Sequence record: PZ452602.1
Source of the DNA: a phage
Length of the DNA: 64,000 bases
Strand: one strand, 5' to 3'
Below are positions 2,908-59,871 of this stretch, piece by piece. Made by a program: the position numbers and the translations under genes. Numbering within the stretch: position 1 is the first letter of the stretch; each line of letters starts with the position of its first letter. The notes beneath the pieces were generated by a model. The model did not search any database, was not told the DNA's origin, and saw only the letters and a program-made list of their open reading frames with translations.

Positions 2908-3543
2908 TCACAGTTCAGATGCTACAGCGATTACTGCTTCAATGTTTTCTGCCGAGCGTTTAATGTCAAGATACACATTACCGTTTTTAGCGATTTTACA
3001 TGACATTCCGATGTCAGTAAATTTCTGAATATGATGTTCCATCATTTTATATCCAAAAATTCGCATATTTCCATTGTTGTTAATTTCAAAATTACGAATT
3101 CCGTGAGTGCGTTTTTCTAAAATAGCGAGATAGTTACTGCGATAAGTTTCGACCTTTTTAAGAACAAATCCATTTTCATCTAAAAGTTTTAACATGAGGT
3201 CTTTATCTTCTTCCATATCGGAAGTAATCTCACGGGCTTTACGAGTTGCTCGCTTTTTCAGCAGTTCTGGAGCATTTTCCTGCGCGTATAAAGTTGCTGC
3301 ATTTGAAATAATATCCTGAGCTTCACCTGTAATGATTAATCCATCACCAGATTTCTCCACCAGGCCTTTTTTGATTAATACCCCAATATTACTATTAACT
3401 ACTGCGTTACCTAAATCTGGATGCACCTCACGAACTTCTGCAGCTGTAATGAAATCTTTCTTAGCAATAGTAATTAAAATCGCAGCAGTTTTTTCATTCA
3501 GAACATCGTTAGAAGCTTTGATGATGTAAGTTACTTTAGACAT
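2908..3543 (-). CDS. motA: middle transcription activator MotA
   Basis: 211 aa, MSKVTYIIKASNDVLNEKTAAIL...; length and sequence as recalled for T4 MotA; early promoter just upstream. Confidence 0.92.
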   Translation of the reverse strand: MSKVTYIIKASNDVLNEKTAAILITIAKKDFITAAEVREVHPDLGNAVVNSNIGVLIKKGLVEKSGDGLIITGEAQDIISNAATLYAQENAPELLKKRATRKAREITSDMEEDKDLMLKLLDENGFVLKKVETYRSNYLAILEKRTHGIRNFEINNNGNMRIFGYKMMEHHIQKFTDIGMSCKIAKNGNVYLDIKRSAENIEAVIAVASEL

Positions 3544-3579
3544 TTTCTAATCTCCGTAATTCTGTATCAGTAGTTGATA

Positions 3580-3620
3580 GTTGTATAGTACCACAGTATG
3601 CTTTGGTTGTAAACCATTTT
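3580..3620 (-). promoter_or_regulatory. T4-type early promoter (-35 GTTTAC, 18-nt spacer, -10 TACTAT) with A/T-rich upstream element
   Basis: Minus strand reads TTTTTCACAAAATGGTTTACA-N18-TACTATAC followed by GGAGA SD and motA ATG; member of repeated cassette. Confidence 0.7.
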
Positions 3621-3633
3621 GTGAAAAAATTTT

Positions 3634-3664
3634 AAAATAAAAAGGGAGAGCCTCGGCTCTCCCT
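3634..3664 (-). terminator. rho-independent terminator hairpin (GGGAGAGCC-GAG-GCTCTCCC plus U-run)
   Basis: Perfect 9-bp GC-rich stem followed on minus strand by TTTTTATTTT; downstream of gene 52 operon. Confidence 0.7.
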
Positions 3665-3668
3665 AAAA

Positions 3669-3818
3669 TTACTGCATGACTGTGATAACTGTCATGATAA
3701 CACGTTGAATTCCGAACGCAAGAAGACCTCCTGCTACAGCTGGAACAACGCCTAAACCCGCTAGTAAAATGCTACCAGATACTAAGGCCGCACTCGTGAT
3801 ACCGATGAATGGACTCAT
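3669..3818 (-). CDS. small hydrophobic protein (49 aa), translationally coupled to gene 52
   Basis: Hand-read ORF MSPFIGITSAALVSGSILLAGLGVVPAVAGG...; ATG overlaps 52 stop (ATGA); below track threshold. Confidence 0.5.
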   Translation of the reverse strand: MSPFIGITSAALVSGSILLAGLGVVPAVAGGLLAFGIQRVIMTVITVMQ

Positions 3819-5143
3819 TTGATTTCCTCTAAATCTTTGGTGTATTCGGTAACTACATCAGTAGTTTTCCAATATTCGTTTTCTTCTTTTTTAGCTTTAG
3901 CTTCTTCAGCAAGTTTCTTCGCTTCATCGGAAGTCATATGAAAAATATTCATTCCAACTAGTTTATCAACATAAGAAGAATACATATCGATTTTCGAAAG
4001 TTCTTCGGTCAGTTCTTTACGAGTTTTACCCTGTACAACAATTTCACCTGAAATTACTTTCTTAATGAAATGTGCTTTGGCAAAGGCTAAACGAAAAGCT
4101 GATTCAGTTTCTTTGATTTTGTTATCAATTCGTTTTTGGACATAAGTTTTACGAACTTCAACAAAGTCTTTAATTAAATCAACTACGTTATCGTAAACTT
4201 GTAGTTTTCCTTTCTCATTAATAACCGTAATATTCTGGGAACGACGCTCAATCAACCCGAAGTCTTTCATAATTTTTGCATGGCGTTCTTCTTCATTATC
4301 GCTCAAAGAATATTCTTTACGGAATTTAACTTTGAATCCAAAACCATGCTCACCACAAGCATCATCCCATGTAATGAAGCCTTTATCTTCAAGTGGGTCT
4401 AAGATTTTACTCACATAAGTTTCACGATCATACTTATACGGAATCTCAGTGATATGCATTTGAGTTCGTGAAGTAAACTTGTATGTTCCACGAATTTCAT
4501 ATTGACCGTCAATCTCAACGACTTCACCACGAAATTCTGGGAATTCTACCTTCGGTTTAGTTACTTTCTTTCCTTGAAGAGCTTGTAATACAGCTTTCTT
4601 GACAGAAGAAACACTATGAGGAAGAATGTAAGTTGCATAACCAGTTGCAATACCGGAAACACCATTAAGAAGAACAGTAGGAATAATAGGCAAATAGAAA
4701 GCAGGCGGAATGTGTTCTTTATCTTGATGTACCGGAGCATATTCAGTATCTTTATATACGTTATAGAAATTTTTACTTACACGAGCAAAAATATAACGAC
4801 TTGCTGCTGCTTTTTGAACGGTACGAGAACCAAAGTTTCCTTGACCATCTAACAGAGGAAAGTTATTGTTCCAAGTGTTAGCCATCAAAGCACCTGCGTC
4901 TTGTGCAGAGTTTTCGCCATGGTGATATCCAAGGTCCGCTACACCACCTGCAATAGAAGCAAGTTTGTGAAACTTATCTTTATTTCCTCGTGCCAAATCA
5001 AGAGCTCGAGCAATAACAAATCGTTGAACTGGCTTAAATCCGTCAATCATATTTGGGATAGCACGATTTTCAACCGTGTACATAGCATAAGCCAATGCTT
5101 CATTATCAATGATACTTTTTAAATCGCGATTATTCAGTTGCAT
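3815..5143 (-). CDS. 52: DNA topoisomerase II medium subunit gp52 (GyrA-like)
   Basis: 442 aa, as recalled for T4 gp52; GyrA-like N-terminal sequence FKPVQRFVIARALDL. Confidence 0.95.
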   Translation of the reverse strand: MQLNNRDLKSIIDNEALAYAMYTVENRAIPNMIDGFKPVQRFVIARALDLARGNKDKFHKLASIAGGVADLGYHHGENSAQDAGALMANTWNNNFPLLDGQGNFGSRTVQKAAASRYIFARVSKNFYNVYKDTEYAPVHQDKEHIPPAFYLPIIPTVLLNGVSGIATGYATYILPHSVSSVKKAVLQALQGKKVTKPKVEFPEFRGEVVEIDGQYEIRGTYKFTSRTQMHITEIPYKYDRETYVSKILDPLEDKGFITWDDACGEHGFGFKVKFRKEYSLSDNEEERHAKIMKDFGLIERRSQNITVINEKGKLQVYDNVVDLIKDFVEVRKTYVQKRIDNKIKETESAFRLAFAKAHFIKKVISGEIVVQGKTRKELTEELSKIDMYSSYVDKLVGMNIFHMTSDEAKKLAEEAKAKKEENEYWKTTDVVTEYTKDLEEIK

Positions 5144-11713: not shown

Positions 11714-11751
11714 AATTAATTATACCACATCCTTGTGGTAAAGTAAACTAC
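11714..11751 (-). promoter_or_regulatory. T4-type early promoter (GTTTAC-N18-TATAAT) overlapping gene 39 stop
   Basis: Minus strand GTAGTTTACTTTACCACAAGGATGTGGTATAAT. Confidence 0.7.
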
Positions 11752-15473: not shown

Positions 15474-15965
15474 TTATGCATAGCGAGCTTTGCTGTAGTG
15501 TTTAATCCAACTTTCAGGAATGACTTTGTATGTTCCTAAAAATACCGTGTTGTACAGCTTAACACCGTCTTCTACCCACTGATCGGTAATGTATGCGCAC
15601 ATAGCACGAGTACGGTTAACAACCCCTTCCTCACCTTCAGTAAATTCAAACTCATAAGGAGCAACGAACTTGATAGCTTGACCGAGTTTCCACTTAAAAT
15701 CTACACCTACATGCGAAGTATCAATCGTTTCAATTCCTTTAGCGGGAACAGCTTTCAAAAACGCAGGCTCAAGAAATTTCCATCGAACATAACCAAACTG
15801 AGGTTTAGACATTCCATCTTTAGGAATGATACGCACTTTTACTTCAGAATCTTCATCTTTAACACCATGTTTAAGCTGAATGCTTACAACTTCAACCAAT
15901 TTTCCTGCTGCCTTAGAACGGGATTTATCAGATACACGAGCAATTTCACCGATATTAATATTCAT
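15474..15965 (-). CDS. MotB-family protein (paralog 1)
   Basis: 163 aa; shares C-terminal motif TDQWVEDGVKLYNTV with the adjacent ORF; motB position. Confidence 0.55.
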   Translation of the reverse strand: MNINIGEIARVSDKSRSKAAGKLVEVVSIQLKHGVKDEDSEVKVRIIPKDGMSKPQFGYVRWKFLEPAFLKAVPAKGIETIDTSHVGVDFKWKLGQAIKFVAPYEFEFTEGEEGVVNRTRAMCAYITDQWVEDGVKLYNTVFLGTYKVIPESWIKHYSKARYA

Positions 15966-16038
15966 AATTATCTCTCACTTGTTAAAAAGATTTTATACTC
16001 CGCAGGACCATTATACTCTGGTCCCAAGAGTTTGTAAA

Positions 16039-16539
16039 CTAGCTTACACGAACATTAATCACTGCGCTGCGAGGAACTACGGAGTACTCTCCAGCATGAA
16101 CTACATTAAGAAGTTCAACGCCATCTTCAATCCACTGGTCAGTTACCCAACCGCCAATCGGATTCGCGAATGGACGACGAATATAAACTGCCTTACACAA
16201 CAAATCAGTCGGGTCTTCAATTTTTTCAACTGGCGTTACATACATAGAAACTAAATCCATATCAATATGGGATTTTTCTTGTTCTTCTTTTTCAATTTCT
16301 GTCAATAAATTGAAATCTTCTTCATAGATGATGAATGATGATACCCTTCCATAATAGTTTCTAATTTCCATGTACACTGTACCAATGAGAATTCCGCTAT
16401 TAACACTAATAACAGTAAAAGGATATCCGCCAGTTGTACCAAGAAGTTCCCAAAACTTGCTATCAGTCGTATTCGACATTGTCTGGAAATCAATGTCAGA
16501 TGGTTTTTTCATTTGATACGTAGTATTAATTTTAATCAT
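16039..16539 (-). CDS. MotB-family protein (paralog 2)
   Basis: 166 aa; C-terminal motif TDQWIEDGVELLNVV shared with paralog 1. Confidence 0.55.
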   Translation of the reverse strand: MIKINTTYQMKKPSDIDFQTMSNTTDSKFWELLGTTGGYPFTVISVNSGILIGTVYMEIRNYYGRVSSFIIYEEDFNLLTEIEKEEQEKSHIDMDLVSMYVTPVEKIEDPTDLLCKAVYIRRPFANPIGGWVTDQWIEDGVELLNVVHAGEYSVVPRSAVINVRVS

Positions 16540-16549
16540 AATTTTCTCT

Positions 16550-17054
16550 TTAGTCTAAGGTAATAAAGCCTTTTAGTTCGGCATGAGATTTGCGGAACAT
16601 TACTTGATGCCCGCCAACGATAACTTGGTCATCTGGTACTTCGTATACAGCAAGATAAAATCCTTTCGAAGCTAATTCTTCACGCTCTTCTCGTGTGAAC
16701 CATCTCATCATATCATATTCGCTAGCGAAAGCAAAATGATAAAGAGCTATAAACCATCCGGGAATATAATGATCTACGCCTACATATTCTTCTTTCTCAA
16801 AGTTAGTATTAATTGCTATATTAGCATTTTTAACTAATAATTTGTCTTCGTGCGGAAGAGGAATTCTTTTATTATCATTACTATGATGCATAAAATTAGG
16901 TCTGTCATAACCTACGTGTAATAACCACTCTTCGCTCCATGAATCTATTATACTCCTGTATGGCGTTATTTGAACACAAAGATCTCGACGTATTGTTATA
17001 GCATCTTCATAATTAAGAATACTAAACGATGATTCAACTCGATAAATTTTCATT
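16550..17054 (-). CDS. hypothetical early protein
   Basis: Track ORF trimmed to internal Met MKIYRVESS... after SD GAGGATAAT, because an early promoter lies in the extended 5' part. Confidence 0.5.
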
Positions 17055-54545: not shown

Positions 54546-54935
54546 TTAATCCAAAATATTATTAGGCATTGGTTGAACACTCACAAGTTCTTTAAAGAAC
54601 TCAGTAGAGTCAGGCAATTTAACCATTTCCGGAGCATGCTTACTGAATTTATGTTTACATTGACGGCATTTATATTCAAGCTCTGGTTTACGCCAGTTAA
54701 TCAATTGAACTTGTTCAGTACCGCATTCAGGGCAATTAGGAACGTTTTTAGAAGCTCTTTCACGTCGTTCAACCATAGCCATAATAGCATCCCATGCTGG
54801 AGGTTTAAAATCTAAATCGTCGCAGCCGTGAATCTTTCCACGCATTTCCATATCATCTTCCTCACCAGCCATAATAATTTTAATTAAACTGGAATTACTT
54901 GAAGCTGCAATGTCTTCTAATAAACGCTTTTTCAT
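54546..54935 (-). CDS. zinc-ribbon protein
   Basis: 129 aa; CPECG...CRQCKH two CxxC pairs. Confidence 0.55.
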
Positions 54936-55858
54936 TTTAATACCTCAATAGCATTACGTAAACCATTTGCTTTGGCGGTTAAAGCCTTAAGAACTTTAGT
55001 ATGCTCTTCAATTTGTTTTTCAACTTCAGTCAAACGGACATTGAGATATTCACGTTCTTCTTTCATAGTATCATTTCCATGATTGGATTTTGGTGTAGGT
55101 TTAAATTCACTAGGGTCCTTTAATTTAATAACAAATTTAGTTTCAAACAGTGAAAGACCATAATTCGTATTATCATCAAAGGATTTGACTACATCCATAT
55201 CAGATAATAACACGCGCAAATTATAAGCCAAAGAACTAATAGTTTCATTGTGTTTATTAGCTTCGCGTGGTTTCATATACGGAAGATTTTTATATATCTC
55301 ATGCGGAGCGCAAACGATAATTGACAATTCAAATTGTCCATTCTGGGACGATGGAATGAATTTAGCCGTAACCCAGTCTTTTACATTCACATTAATAGTA
55401 CGGTTATCACCATGACAAAACAGTCTACGAGAATGCTTAAAAAGCATATTCACGTTATTATTGAATTCGTGTGAAAATTCACTAGCAAATTTTTCTTTAC
55501 TATCTTTAGAAAACCATTCTTCTAAATAAGTTCTTTTCACGTCGTTAATAATATTAAATGTAACAACACTAGCATTTGATACATTAGTCTTAATGTAGCT
55601 TGGATACATAAATTTTTTAACATTATTAACAGCTATCACGGAAGATAGTAATCGGGAACGTTTGAACCACTCGAGCAAAGAACCAAGAGAATGTGAATAC
55701 GCATTTTGTGTATCTTTACAAATATGGTTTTCCCATCCAATATAGTCTAAAAAATCACGAAGAATATTATTGATTACTGCTCTGTGCCCGATCTGATAAT
55801 TACGGTGTTTAGTAATAAGACTGTCAAAATAATCAATATAATGTTTACGAGTTTTCAT
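54932..55858 (-). CDS. hypothetical protein with C-terminal coiled coil (tandem paralog A)
   Basis: 308 aa; N-terminus MKTRKHYIDYFDSLI; C-terminal heptad-like segment. Confidence 0.6.
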   Translation of the reverse strand: MKTRKHYIDYFDSLITKHRNYQIGHRAVINNILRDFLDYIGWENHICKDTQNAYSHSLGSLLEWFKRSRLLSSVIAVNNVKKFMYPSYIKTNVSNASVVTFNIINDVKRTYLEEWFSKDSKEKFASEFSHEFNNNVNMLFKHSRRLFCHGDNRTINVNVKDWVTAKFIPSSQNGQFELSIIVCAPHEIYKNLPYMKPREANKHNETISSLAYNLRVLLSDMDVVKSFDDNTNYGLSLFETKFVIKLKDPSEFKPTPKSNHGNDTMKEEREYLNVRLTEVEKQIEEHTKVLKALTAKANGLRNAIEVLK

Positions 55859-55910
55859 ATTCTTCTCACTTGGTTAATGGTTTATACTCCGAGCCATCCT
55901 TGGCTTTAAA

Positions 55911-56912
55911 TTACTTAATTAACTGTAAAGCTTGTTCAAGACGATCAAGACGATTAACGGATTCTTCCCAAATCTTTTTAGCCTGCTCATATTCTTTCTG
56001 CGCTTTATTAGAAATTTCTAGAACTTCTTTATAAGCTTTTTCTAATGCAATAACTTCTGAACGAATTTCTACCGGTTCAGGTGAATCATCAAGACATTCC
56101 ATTAGTTCCTCAAGGGTAGTTTCTTCTTTAGGAGTATTCACAATTTCATCACATTTTTGCTGGTAAATTTCTTTATCAGTCGGTGAGCACGCACACTTTA
56201 CTTCACGAAGGCTAATTATAATTTTATATCCTTCCCAACCACACATATTTTTGAAAGGATATGTATGAATACTTTTTACAGTTTCCATACAGCCCAAAAC
56301 CGCCTCTAATTGATAAGTTATAGTGCTAGCAATTGAGAAAAATTTATTAATATTCTTTTGGTTAGCGTTTGGTGTAAAAAATCCATAATTCACAAAAATA
56401 GCTACTTTATTTTCATCAAGCTCATATTCTTTTACGATAATCATATCAGAAGCCAAAGGATGAATTTGACGATAATCGCCATAACATAATTTAGAAGCTG
56501 ATTTTAGAATTTGTCCTTTGAAAAGTCTGAAATTACTAATCCAACGACGAGTAAAAATATTCTCAGGATCTTCTTTATTATTAAGATGATAAGAATTAAC
56601 ATCACCGAACCAATTATATCCTACTACATCTTTAGTTCGTTTAATTTCTTTCCCAAATTTACTAAGAATATCTCTGTTGACTAAGTATGAAAGAAGACGA
56701 GACCCTTTAAAGGTTTTCTTAATGTCATCTTTATCTGTACGACTAGAAATTTCACGAACTTCATGAATAAATTTGCCGGAAGAAACAATACTTGCATTAG
56801 TATTATTGAGCCATTGATTGATAATAGAAATCACACTATTCTTACTAGACATAGGTTTAACTTTATCATCAATAACGCTGTTGAACGATTTAATATATTC
56901 GTTGCGAGTCAT
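55911..56912 (-). CDS. hypothetical protein with C-terminal coiled coil (tandem paralog B)
   Basis: Track ORF trimmed to MTRNEYIKSFNSVID after SD, since the -10 of an early promoter overlaps the track start; about 333 aa. Confidence 0.6.
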   Translation of the reverse strand: MTRNEYIKSFNSVIDDKVKPMSSKNSVISIINQWLNNTNASIVSSGKFIHEVREISSRTDKDDIKKTFKGSRLLSYLVNRDILSKFGKEIKRTKDVVGYNWFGDVNSYHLNNKEDPENIFTRRWISNFRLFKGQILKSASKLCYGDYRQIHPLASDMIIVKEYELDENKVAIFVNYGFFTPNANQKNINKFFSIASTITYQLEAVLGCMETVKSIHTYPFKNMCGWEGYKIIISLREVKCACSPTDKEIYQQKCDEIVNTPKEETTLEELMECLDDSPEPVEIRSEVIALEKAYKEVLEISNKAQKEYEQAKKIWEESVNRLDRLEQALQLIK

Positions 56913-56936
56913 ATTAATCTCCTCAGTAGAAAGTAA

Positions 56937-56975
56937 GAACATTATACCACATCCTTGTGGCGAAGTAAACTAGTT
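56937..56975 (-). promoter_or_regulatory. T4-type early promoter (GTTTAC-N18-TATAAT)
   Basis: Minus strand CTAGTTTACTTCGCCACAAGGATGTGGTATAAT. Confidence 0.7.
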
Positions 56976-57974
56976 TAGTGCATTTAGTGCGTTGTTCAAT
57001 TTAGAACGTTGCTTCGTGAGATTTTTTACTTTTTCTTGGGCTTTTTCTAGCATCTTTTCAGCTTCTAACACTTCATTAGTTGCTTTAACGAGTTCATCAT
57101 CTACTGCCTTGATAGACTTCTCAATCGCATCCGCGTGCCATTTTTCAACAGGTTTAAGACTCGGATTTTCAACAGGAAGAAAATTCACTTTATTGAATTT
57201 CCATGCATCATTATTACCTGAACTATACATCCAAAATTTAGGATCGTTTGATGAGTAATTAGTTTGGGGTTCAGGTTTTTTCTCTTGTGTAACTTCGTCC
57301 TTTCTCAAAAAATCATATTTAAATGAAACGATCATATCAAGTTCATATGTTGTCGTATCTAATTTAAATCGTTCGAAATGCTGCGAAATCTTAGATTGAA
57401 CAGCAGCAACAACATCCATATACTTAAATGCTTCTGTCAGCTGTGATTTAAGACATTCACAAATTGAAAGAGAATTTTTAGTACTAGGTTTAAAGCTAAT
57501 TCGTGCAGTTCTATTATTTTCTTTTAATGGTCTTACTTCCATCTGAAGAGTATAACCATCAAATTTCAGATTCTTTAAGTTAATATCAGAGCCCTTTAAT
57601 CGACTAGCAGTAGACAAAATTTGCTTTAATTGTTTACGAAATAGAGCAATAAATCTCCATTCAATACGATAATGATTTGGATTAAAAAATCCTGTTGATA
57701 AATCAACCTTACTCTGACCAACGCCTTGAACAAATAGAGGATTTTTATAATCAATAGTTTTACAGAAATCGGTGAGCTGCTCACGAGCAGTCATTTGAGT
57801 AATATACCCTGCTTCATTAAAATGACGTAACCATTCACTGCTATTCATATACTTAAAGTGAATATCACGATTAACTTTATCAGGGTCTAAATTATTTTGG
57901 CACAAAAATGTCATAACATTACGGGTATAGCTGGCATTACGAACCATATCTTCAATTTGAGAACGAGTTTTCAT
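56970..57974 (-). CDS. hypothetical protein with C-terminal coiled coil (tandem paralog C)
   Basis: 334 aa; N-terminus MKTRSQIEDMVRNAS; C-terminal heptad-like segment. Confidence 0.6.
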   Translation of the reverse strand: MKTRSQIEDMVRNASYTRNVMTFLCQNNLDPDKVNRDIHFKYMNSSEWLRHFNEAGYITQMTAREQLTDFCKTIDYKNPLFVQGVGQSKVDLSTGFFNPNHYRIEWRFIALFRKQLKQILSTASRLKGSDINLKNLKFDGYTLQMEVRPLKENNRTARISFKPSTKNSLSICECLKSQLTEAFKYMDVVAAVQSKISQHFERFKLDTTTYELDMIVSFKYDFLRKDEVTQEKKPEPQTNYSSNDPKFWMYSSGNNDAWKFNKVNFLPVENPSLKPVEKWHADAIEKSIKAVDDELVKATNEVLEAEKMLEKAQEKVKNLTKQRSKLNNALNALN

Positions 57975-57982
57975 AGTGTTCC

Positions 57983-58891
57983 TTAAGATTTAAGTAAATC
58001 AACAATTTTAATTAATTTTTCACGCTCAGATTTAGCTTTACTACTCAATCCAGATAGTCTGAAAATTTCATCGTCATACTGTTGAATAGAAATATTCAGC
58101 TCTTCAATTTGCTTATTAAAATAATCAATTTGCTCAGAATGTTTTTCATTACTGCGAACTGGTACAGGTTTTGTAGGCAATTTAGTTAAACTGGATTCAT
58201 CCGGGCGATAAATTAAAATACAACTTGAACCAATCGGGCATTTAGCACCAGACACATATTCTAATGTTCCGGCTTCTTTTAAAACTTCAAAAGCTAAACA
58301 GAGATGATGCCCCATATTAACATAATCTGTAGAGCGAGCTCTGACGTAATAATCATCGCCGCGAATACTAAATTTAAAGCATTTAAGGTCTTCTGTATTA
58401 TTGGTCTTAAAAATCATTTGTTTATCTAGACCTTTAGCTAATCTAGCGCCTAATGCTAATAATCGTCGTTGATTTTCCCACAAATCCGCAATCATTTGAT
58501 CGAATGACAATTTCGGCATTAGTCTACCATAAAGGTCATATCCTTTATTATAATTGCGAAGAATTTCACTCGCGTTAATACGAGACAACGCTCCAATTTT
58601 ATTAAGGGCTTTCATGATGCGATTAGATAAACCCATTCCAGACCCGTTTGTTCGTTGTAAATGTTTATCTAATCCAAACCCAATATCAACTTTAAATTTA
58701 TCTAAAATTTCAGCATGAACATCTCTGTCAATAACATTCAAATCCAAAGTTGGGTTAAATCTATGAAAAAATTTATCTGGCTCTCCACGACGAAGTACAG
58801 TCCATTCATTCAATTTTTTATTAACTAAAGATTTAATTACTGCATTGACATTATTAATTACTACTGACATATTTTCCTCACTCAATTTCAA
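57983..58891 (-). CDS. hypothetical protein with C-terminal coiled coil (tandem paralog D)
   Basis: 302 aa; C-terminal heptad-like segment. Confidence 0.55.
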   Translation of the reverse strand: MKLSEENMSVVINNVNAVIKSLVNKKLNEWTVLRRGEPDKFFHRFNPTLDLNVIDRDVHAEILDKFKVDIGFGLDKHLQRTNGSGMGLSNRIMKALNKIGALSRINASEILRNYNKGYDLYGRLMPKLSFDQMIADLWENQRRLLALGARLAKGLDKQMIFKTNNTEDLKCFKFSIRGDDYYVRARSTDYVNMGHHLCLAFEVLKEAGTLEYVSGAKCPIGSSCILIYRPDESSLTKLPTKPVPVRSNEKHSEQIDYFNKQIEELNISIQQYDDEIFRLSGLSSKAKSEREKLIKIVDLLKS

Positions 58892-59343: not shown

Positions 59344-59871
59344 TTATGCGAGTACCGTCTTTAACCGTTCTTCAAACTTCCGAAGAGTATTTTGGCGTTC
59401 AGCTCTTTGCTTTTTGTAAGTTTCAATACGCTCTGAAATGAGAGTGTATCGTTCATTTACTGATTCTTTCATAAAATCAGGAATTTCACGAGAAGCTTTA
59501 ATCTCGTCAAATTTATCAATAACAGCTTGCTCTTCAGCAATTAAGTTATCATACATCAAAATATCTTTCTTGATGAACTCAATATCTTCTTGAGTTACAC
59601 GAGATAATTTAGATGCTTTATCCTTTTTGTACTGTTCGTTAGTATCACGAGACCAGTGTAATGTACGATTTTTATTCGTATTCTTGTAAATTTCTACAAT
59701 ACCAATCTCATCGATAATAACGATCCAATTCCAACGGGATTTGTAAATTTGTCCTCCATCAACAGTGATTTCACCTCCGATTGAGATGTCATTAAAGAAC
59801 TTGCTTTGTGCTTCAGATTTAAATTTACCATCGTTGTAATTTACCAAGTTGAAAATATCTTTAGCGTTCAT
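59344..59871 (-). CDS. hypothetical protein with C-terminal coiled coil
   Basis: 175 aa; SD GGAGGAAC; directly downstream of early promoter. Confidence 0.55.
   Translation of the reverse strand: MNAKDIFNLVNYNDGKFKSEAQSKFFNDISIGGEITVDGGQIYKSRWNWIVIIDEIGIVEIYKNTNKNRTLHWSRDTNEQYKKDKASKLSRVTQEDIEFIKKDILMYDNLIAEEQAVIDKFDEIKASREIPDFMKESVNERYTLISERIETYKKQRAERQNTLRKFEERLKTVLA

Follow-up and report, generated by a model that had tools for sequence, protein, structure and literature searches.

The 64,000-nucleotide stretch of phage DNA analyzed here (sequence record PZ452602.1; hereafter, the window) comes from a Tequatrovirus, i.e., a T4-like phage, and carries in its nrdC-tk accessory region, between nrdC.2 and nrdC.7, an array of four consecutive minus-strand genes, nrdC.3, nrdC.4, nrdC.5, and nrdC.6. 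We find that these four genes constitute one family with a shared head-linker-coiled-coil design, a unity supported by sequence profiles for three of them and by predicted fold for the fourth, and we consider it reasonably probable that the family consists of diverged, early, nonessential counter-defense proteins in which a variable head would be dedicated to a particular target and a coiled-coil tail would make the protein oligomeric. That the genes are T4 genes was already known, as was the counter-defense role of nrdC.5, published in 2022; what is new here is the recognition of the family and, with it, of the array as a variable, recombining counter-defense locus across T4-like phages.

The sequence-only reading that preceded this analysis had described four consecutive minus-strand open reading frames (ORFs) of near-equal size, and all four are present in that order at positions 54932 to 55858 (308 amino acids, aa), 55911 to 56942, 56970 to 57974 (334 aa), and 57983 to 58891 of the mechanical ORF list. 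Synteny with phages RB51 and T4 identifies them as the orthologs of nrdC.3, nrdC.4, nrdC.5, and nrdC.6, respectively, with two of the starts corrected. The mechanical ORF of nrdC.4 extends to an ATG at 56942 that overlaps the -10 box of a promoter (see below); because of this overlap, and because a Shine-Dalgarno sequence (GAGGAG, 56924 to 56919) precedes the ATG at 56912, we place the start at the latter. The resulting protein (55911 to 56912, minus strand; 333 aa) agrees with the T4 annotation and with the N terminus MTRNEYIKSF already quoted in the earlier reading. Similarly, nrdC.6 most likely begins with the ATG at 58870, as in its orthologs (57983 to 58870, minus strand; 295 aa), the mechanical ORF beginning with a TTG at 58891. 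It is the first member of the array along the direction of transcription, 7 nucleotides past the stop codon of nrdC.7, and nrdC.3 (54932 to 55858, minus strand; 308 aa; 92% identical to its T4 counterpart) is the final one, with a stop codon that overlaps the start of nrdC.2 (ATGA), which suggests translational coupling. The gene at 56970 to 57974 (minus strand) is the ortholog of T4 nrdC.5, to which it is 90% identical over 97% of its length and with which it shares its place between nrdC.6 and nrdC.4 and a full-length match to the Pfam family DUF7235 (PF23882). The 4.9 kb around the array are 95 to 96% identical to Shigella phages JK23 and CM8, Escherichia phage wV7, and phage RB51, and at least 80% of this region is contained in 462 phage records.

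The earlier reading had further proposed that the array arose by tandem duplication followed by strong divergence and that three of its members have related N termini, and both proposals are borne out, with three members joined by sequence profiles, the fourth by predicted fold, and no DNA-level repeats left between the array copies. The N-terminal signature M(K)TR..(Y/I)I is common to nrdC.3, nrdC.4, and nrdC.5, and its T3 and R4 are invariant across 50 aligned sequences from these families. All-against-all BLASTP comparison of the four proteins yielded a single convincing pair, nrdC.3 and nrdC.4 (23% identity over 228 aa), the other pairs aligning in the tail only; the same two proteins match phrog_1435 end to end (E = 4.9e-99 and E = 1.3e-163, respectively), and all nrdC.4 homologs carry Pfam PF26897. 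The nrdC.5 protein covers positions 1 to 307 of the 307 positions of the DUF7235 profile with 387.4 bits (cut-off, 30), a threshold missed by the other three (nrdC.3, 13 bits in the tail only; nrdC.4 and nrdC.6, no match). With our first, shallow profiles, hhalign aligned nrdC.4 with nrdC.5 at a probability of 76%. The nrdC.5 profile was then enriched with divergent nrdC.5-like proteins of Dhakavirus and Mosigvirus, which were collected by tblastn, by an exhaustive hidden Markov model (HMM) search, and from fetched loci; against it, the combined nrdC.3/nrdC.4 profile reached probabilities of 95.9 to 97.8% (E = 6e-9 to 6e-12) over up to 290 columns. Because the local profile alignment spans the globular region (residues 61 to 223 of nrdC.3/nrdC.4 against 45 to 200 of nrdC.5), the homology extends beyond the tail, and the profile evidence establishes nrdC.3, nrdC.4, and nrdC.5 as paralogs. 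The exhaustive search with the nrdC.5 profile, which covered 1.84 billion representative proteins, yielded 13 hits, none of them from the paralog families; HMMER alone is therefore blind to the superfamily. The family of nrdC.5 proper is thus very small, and it is limited to T4-like phages.

The remaining member, nrdC.6, matches phrog_2257 over its full length (E = 2.4e-152), and all of its homologs carry PF26899. Inspection by eye shows two motifs that are collinear in the four proteins, approximately (G/S)xL(S/T)...(A/N)...L..(F/Y) and (I/L)L..(A/G)(S/A)(R/K)L..G.D. Aligned in the same manner, the first conserved block reads FKRSRLLSSVIAVNNVKKF / FKGSRLLSYLVNRDILSKF / FNEAGYITQMTAREQLTDF / LNKIGALSRINASEILRNY and the second NMLFKHSRRLFCHGD / GQILKSASKLCYGD / KQILSTASRLKGSD / RRLLALGARLAKGLD across the four proteins, the most conserved blocks of the nrdC.6 family are collinear with the most conserved blocks of nrdC.5, and L..A(L/I)..LK closes the tails of all four. 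No family was found in NCBIfam, and searches of the Protein Data Bank sequences with the nrdC.5 and nrdC.6 profiles gave nothing meaningful, there being no solved structure for either family.

AlphaFold2 monomer models were made for nrdC.5, using a joint alignment of the nrdC.3, nrdC.4, and nrdC.5 families, and for nrdC.6 (mean predicted local distance difference test score [pLDDT], 70.7 and 76.9, respectively). Both models show the same order of elements: N-terminal helices and a helix pair come first, and after them two beta-hairpins with a helix between them, a disordered linker (residues 230 to 276 in nrdC.5, with a pLDDT of <50; residues 227 to 241 in nrdC.6), and a single long terminal helix (residues 278 to 333 and 245 to 294, respectively). 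In a Foldseek search against the viral models of BFVD, the nrdC.5 model matched NrdC.6 of phage JS10 over its full length (E = 2.7e-5; probability, 1.0), and the lists of matches to nrdC.5 and nrdC.6 share at least eight uncharacterized proteins of about 300 to 370 aa from T4-like phages of Erwinia, Klebsiella, Pectobacterium, Acinetobacter, Yersinia, and Serratia. The shared fold anticipated by the sequence-only reading, which had suggested AlphaFold models as a check, thus finds support for the two proteins modeled, and we conclude from predicted structure, not from sequence statistics, that the family very probably includes nrdC.6 as a fourth, older paralog. Among solved structures, the models resemble the RNA polymerase alpha N-terminal/Rpb11-like dimerization fold and the phage tail-terminator fold, with 3 to 15% sequence identity over 60 to 110 aligned residues. 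Equal scores are, however, reached by several fold families unrelated to these and by designed proteins; what these predicted similarities reflect is a common two-layer alpha/beta sandwich, which is not evidence of relationship or function.

Each of the four ORFs had also been said to end in a heptad-like helix, and this, too, holds. By a heptad score of our own making (not a published predictor; P values from shuffles of each protein's own composition), 10 or 11 of the 12 a/d positions in the last 42 residues of each array protein are hydrophobic (P <= 0.001), with a register that runs unbroken for six to eight heptads, and both models end in long helices. The tails comprise the last 46 aa of nrdC.3 (54935 to 55072, minus strand; 10/12 a/d positions hydrophobic, P < 0.001), the last 52 aa of nrdC.4 (55914 to 56069, minus strand; heptad score and register), residues 278 to 334 of nrdC.5 (56973 to 57143, minus strand; 11/12 a/d positions hydrophobic, the modeled helix at 278 to 333 lying in a block with a pLDDT of 72 to 90), and residues 245 to 295 of nrdC.6 (57986 to 58138, minus strand; AlphaFold2 model, heptad score, and register). 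Of the minus-strand ORFs in the window that encode 100 aa or more, 65 in all, only 5 have such tails, the four array genes and nrdC.8, and this clustering is not due to chance.

At least part of the array is probably expressed early. A T4-type early promoter, GTTTACTTCGCCACAAGGATGTGGTATAAT, lies on the minus strand at 56970 to 56941 and consists of GTTTAC (-35), a 17-nucleotide spacer, and TGgTATAAT (extended -10). Its first base is also the final base of the nrdC.5 stop codon, and 28 nucleotides separate the end of its -10 box from the ATG of nrdC.4. Neither box varies among T4, RB51, and Dhakavirus JS98, unlike the spacer and flanks, and the exact motif GTTTAC-N16-18-TATAAT occurs six times in the window, always on the minus strand, where 0.13 occurrences would be expected by chance. 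An early promoter inside the array, placed upstream of paralog B by the sequence-only reading, is therefore supported by motif and by conservation as far as Dhakavirus. A promoter-like site about 45 kb away (11719 to 11748, minus strand) shares nearly all 30 nucleotides with it, including the spacer (GTTTACTT[TA/CG]CCACAAGGATGTGGTATAAT), and has exactly the sequence that the nrdC.4 promoter has in RB51. Repeats this similar could serve as recombination substrates.

The functional evidence comes from the T4 orthologs. A T4 clone with deletions of accessory genes does not plate on Escherichia coli ECOR17 or on MG1655 carrying ECOR17 dsr1, the gene for a defense-associated sirtuin of that strain, and infection is restored either by disrupting dsr1 or by plasmid-borne expression of T4 nrdC.5 alone (Srikant, Guegler and Laub, eLife 2022; PMC9391042). 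That paper reports the phenotype only and contains no mechanism, structure, or paralog relationship for NrdC.5. The second gene downstream of the array, nrdC.1, acts as an inhibitor of a Septu system (preprint 10.1101/2025.11.20.689424), and T4 transposon data from the same source show that nrdC.3, nrdC.4, nrdC.5, and nrdC.6 are nonessential on E. coli K-12, insertions being tolerated at 96 to 100% of sites. Finally, Dsr1 and Avs7 have a TPR sensor in common, which in Dsr1 is reported to recognize phage major capsid proteins (2026 preprint PMC12803255).

On the basis of these observations, we propose that the array proteins share a design in which a helical N-terminal part would lead into a small alpha/beta core of two layers (a helix pair, then two beta-hairpins with a helix between them), followed by a disordered linker and a heptad helix of 45 to 56 residues. 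The head of each paralog would bind and neutralize a different host immune protein, and the tail would render the protein oligomeric and so confer avidity for multimeric targets. For nrdC.5, the target would be the Dsr1 sirtuin NADase. Since Dsr1 is reported to sense the capsid protein, a late product, NrdC.5 made early could disarm it beforehand, blocking Dsr1 before its trigger appears. A likely mode, by analogy, is that NrdC.5 occupies or locks the Dsr1 sensor, as DSAD1, encoded by SPbeta-like Bacillus phages, does for DSR2, a SIR2-domain NADase of bacterial defense. The likeness is one of mode of action, not of family membership, and the two cases differ in both the target protein and the host clade. 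Direct binding to Dsr1, the interface involved, and the contribution of the coiled coil are, like a counter-defense role for nrdC.3, nrdC.4, and nrdC.6, parts that we infer.

Comparison across T4-like phages shows the array to be more variable than most of its surroundings. The array genes of the window are 89 to 96% identical to those of T4, compared with 96 to 100% for most neighboring genes, although the neighbors nrdC.2 (78%) and nrdC.7 (90%) are also divergent. With respect to phage JS98, they are 22 to 48% identical or absent, whereas the conserved neighbors 49, nrdC, nrdC.1, nrdC.8, nrdC.10, and nrdC.11 are 70 to 88% identical. Within a single genus, nrdC.3 falls into at least three allele classes (>=90%, ~60%, and ~55% aa identity), and phage JLBYU24 combines an nrdC.3 of the ~60% class with an nrdC.5 that is nonetheless 99.7% identical to that of the window. 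Phages with near-identical flanking genes can also differ in nrdC.3 class. Copy number varies as well: from the head of the array, there are four members in Tequatrovirus (nrdC.6, nrdC.5, nrdC.4, and nrdC.3), three in Dhakavirus JS98 (nrdC.6, nrdC.5-like, and nrdC.4) and in Mosigvirus S143_2 (nrdC.6-like, nrdC.5-like, and nrdC.3-like), two in Salmonella phage Manna (an nrdC.6::nrdC.4 hybrid and nrdC.3), and one, split into two ORFs, in Klebsiella phage KPV15, while Acinetobacter phage Berthold has one 335-aa gene with the same kind of tail adjoining nrdC. At the head of the array, nrdC.6 is retained in three genera. Family HMMs found no significant match in the syntenic regions of T4-like phages that infect Klebsiella, Acinetobacter, and Aeromonas, and only structure and tail features link those phages to the family. 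In KPV15, the overlapping ORFs gp115 and gp114 (149 and 175 aa; 15950 to 16923 of the KPV15 locus) have the appearance of a single array-type protein interrupted by a frameshift, representing either a pseudogene or a sequencing error; gp114 bears an ALEHMDVVKK motif and the heptad tail.

Natural hybrid genes hint at how such variation could arise. The Manna gene Manna_094 (3215 to 4252 of the Manna locus) is an in-frame fusion of nrdC.6 residues 1 to about 267 with the last 83 residues of nrdC.4, joined at a DDEI/CDEI microhomology by a deletion that took nrdC.5 and most of nrdC.4; as Manna therefore lacks nrdC.5, its anti-Dsr1 function should be lost. A metagenomic protein, P0057, is an nrdC.5::nrdC.3 hybrid. 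In three phages, only the tail of the query gene is detectable, namely, ACG-C40 (nrdC.3), Manna (nrdC.4), and Pinarejo (nrdC.6), and this sequence pattern hints that a head can be exchanged and the tail retained. A separate kind of rearrangement is seen in P0059 of Shigella phage Sf25, an nrdC.6 in which about 83 aa are duplicated internally. We set aside P0233, in which an unrelated 120-aa N terminus precedes a 100% identical nrdC.5 tail, because its N terminus is unmatched in the phage collection and it may be an assembly artifact. Overall, the array appears to change mainly via allele replacement and gene gain and loss. Since hybrids and tail-only-conserved genes exist, a reshuffling of heads and tails is hinted at, and we tentatively raise the possibility, doubtful as it still is, that the array functions as a modular platform of inhibitor heads on coiled-coil stalks, in which each head would plug another immune sensor and recombination between paralogs would generate new specificities. 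Under this arrangement, the sensor plugged by nrdC.5 would be the capsid-sensing TPR part of Dsr1, and those plugged by its paralogs would be related to it or of other kinds.

Two alternatives concern the unity of the array. One is that only nrdC.3, nrdC.4, and nrdC.5 are true paralogs and that the likeness of nrdC.6 to them is analogy or a shared tail module. The absence of the M(K)TR N terminus from nrdC.6, the failure of the exhaustive nrdC.5 HMM search to retrieve its family, and the lack of significance in hhalign comparisons with the other members all speak for such a separation, but we regard it as unlikely in light of the same predicted order of secondary-structure elements as in nrdC.5, the full-length Foldseek match and overlapping match lists, the collinearity of the most conserved blocks, the persistence of nrdC.6 at the head of the array in three genera, and the natural in-frame hybrid that joins it to nrdC.4. 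The other places all four proteins in one hetero-oligomeric complex assembled via their tails, in which case they would not act separately as inhibitors of different targets. A common heptad design and the terminal L..A(L/I)..LK in all four tails would suit such a complex, as would the co-location and largely shared transcription of the genes; against this, plasmid-expressed nrdC.5 alone suffices against Dsr1, and related phages make do with three members, two, or one, which leaves this arrangement very unlikely.

A third alternative is that the array serves general host takeover, for instance, by modulating host RNA polymerase or another housekeeping complex through the dimerization-type alpha/beta domain, the anti-Dsr1 effect then being indirect. 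This is quite unlikely given that the genes are dispensable on K-12, that nrdC.5 alone rescues infection specifically when Dsr1 is present, and that rapid turnover and variable copy number are a misfit for a conserved housekeeping target. Several observations nevertheless weigh against our proposal of a counter-defense family. Counter-defense activity is shown for only one of the four members, in T4 and not in the window phage, and no experiment assigns a target to nrdC.3, nrdC.4, or nrdC.6; among the rows listed of one HIDEN-SEQ comparison table, whose conditions are not identified, none records a fitness effect for these three genes. Binding to Dsr1 and oligomerization are predictions only. 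The nrdC.6 profile gave insignificant scores against the others (hhalign probability, 2 to 5% in local and 11 to 22% in global mode), and profile enrichment did not rescue it; the nrdC.5 and nrdC.6 models, both only moderately confident, superimpose with template modeling (TM) scores of just 0.35 to 0.41, although low values are expected, as a flexible linker separates head from stalk. Further, the pairwise ratios of nonsynonymous to synonymous substitution (dN/dS) of the array genes, 0.09 to 0.31 as against 0 to 0.16 for most neighbors, denote purifying selection that is only somewhat relaxed, with no classic signature of positive selection. Gene-wide positive selection is accordingly unsupported, and the array proteins are functional. 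The earlier reading had called the array an arms-race locus for anti-defense or exclusion factors. The anti-defense part is supported by the effect of the 90% identical T4 nrdC.5 against Dsr1, the inhibition of Septu by nrdC.1, dispensability on K-12, fast divergence, allele classes, and copy number variation; for superinfection exclusion we found no evidence.

Some features of the neighborhood and of existing annotations deserve mention. The gene nrdC.2 (54546 to 54935, minus strand) encodes 129 aa, compared with 104 aa in T4 (78% identity over 76% of its length), and includes a zinc-ribbon-like CxxC...CxxC segment (Pfam Zn_ribbon_8, E = 6.6e-6, under the gathering score). Separated from the array by the membrane protein gene nrdC.7 and lying about 500 bases upstream of nrdC.6, nrdC.8 (59344 to 59871, minus strand; 175 aa) has a C-terminal heptad helix (9/12 a/d positions, P = 0.0005). 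We considered it as a fifth, truncated member and rejected this for now, as no profile similarity to the array families was found; the Foldseek match to a 175-aa KPV15 protein is to the C-terminal half of the split array-type gene described above (gp115 plus gp114), not to an nrdC.8 ortholog. In GenBank, hundreds of records mislabel array genes as thioredoxin, many of them applying this label to nrdC.1 through nrdC.11, and one record names an array gene "Mur ligase domain-containing protein." None of the four array proteins has a thioredoxin or glutaredoxin Pfam match at E <= 1 or contains a CxxC motif, and the label has spread from the gene names nrdC.x. An Rfam search of the array region found nothing.

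The array can be compared with the known counter-defense islands of T4, such as dmd-tifA-adfA (anti-toxin-antitoxin) and the genes for IPI, IPII, and IPIII, whose small-to-medium, nonessential, fast-evolving products each act against a different host system and are often deleted (PMC9391042). Like these islands, the nrdC region holds more than one such gene, nrdC.1 (anti-Septu) and nrdC.5 (anti-Dsr1). The genes of the T4 islands are, however, mostly unrelated to each other, whereas nrdC.3 to nrdC.6 appear to be adjacent homologs built on one scaffold with a coiled-coil tail: the other three genes of the window share the architecture of nrdC.5, to which nrdC.3 and nrdC.4 are also homologous at the profile level. 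Although T4 is the reference phage, most of its nrdC-tk accessory region is without an assigned function, and because they are linked to nrdC.5, with its proven anti-Dsr1 phenotype, nrdC.3, nrdC.4, and nrdC.6 become testable counter-defense candidates. The domain logic that emerges, a variable head, a conserved and predicted oligomerizing tail, and two motifs, can guide mutagenesis and the search for targets. The link to counter-defense would also explain the differences in copy number and alleles of this block between otherwise near-identical therapeutic T4-like phages, and it thereby bears on their host range.

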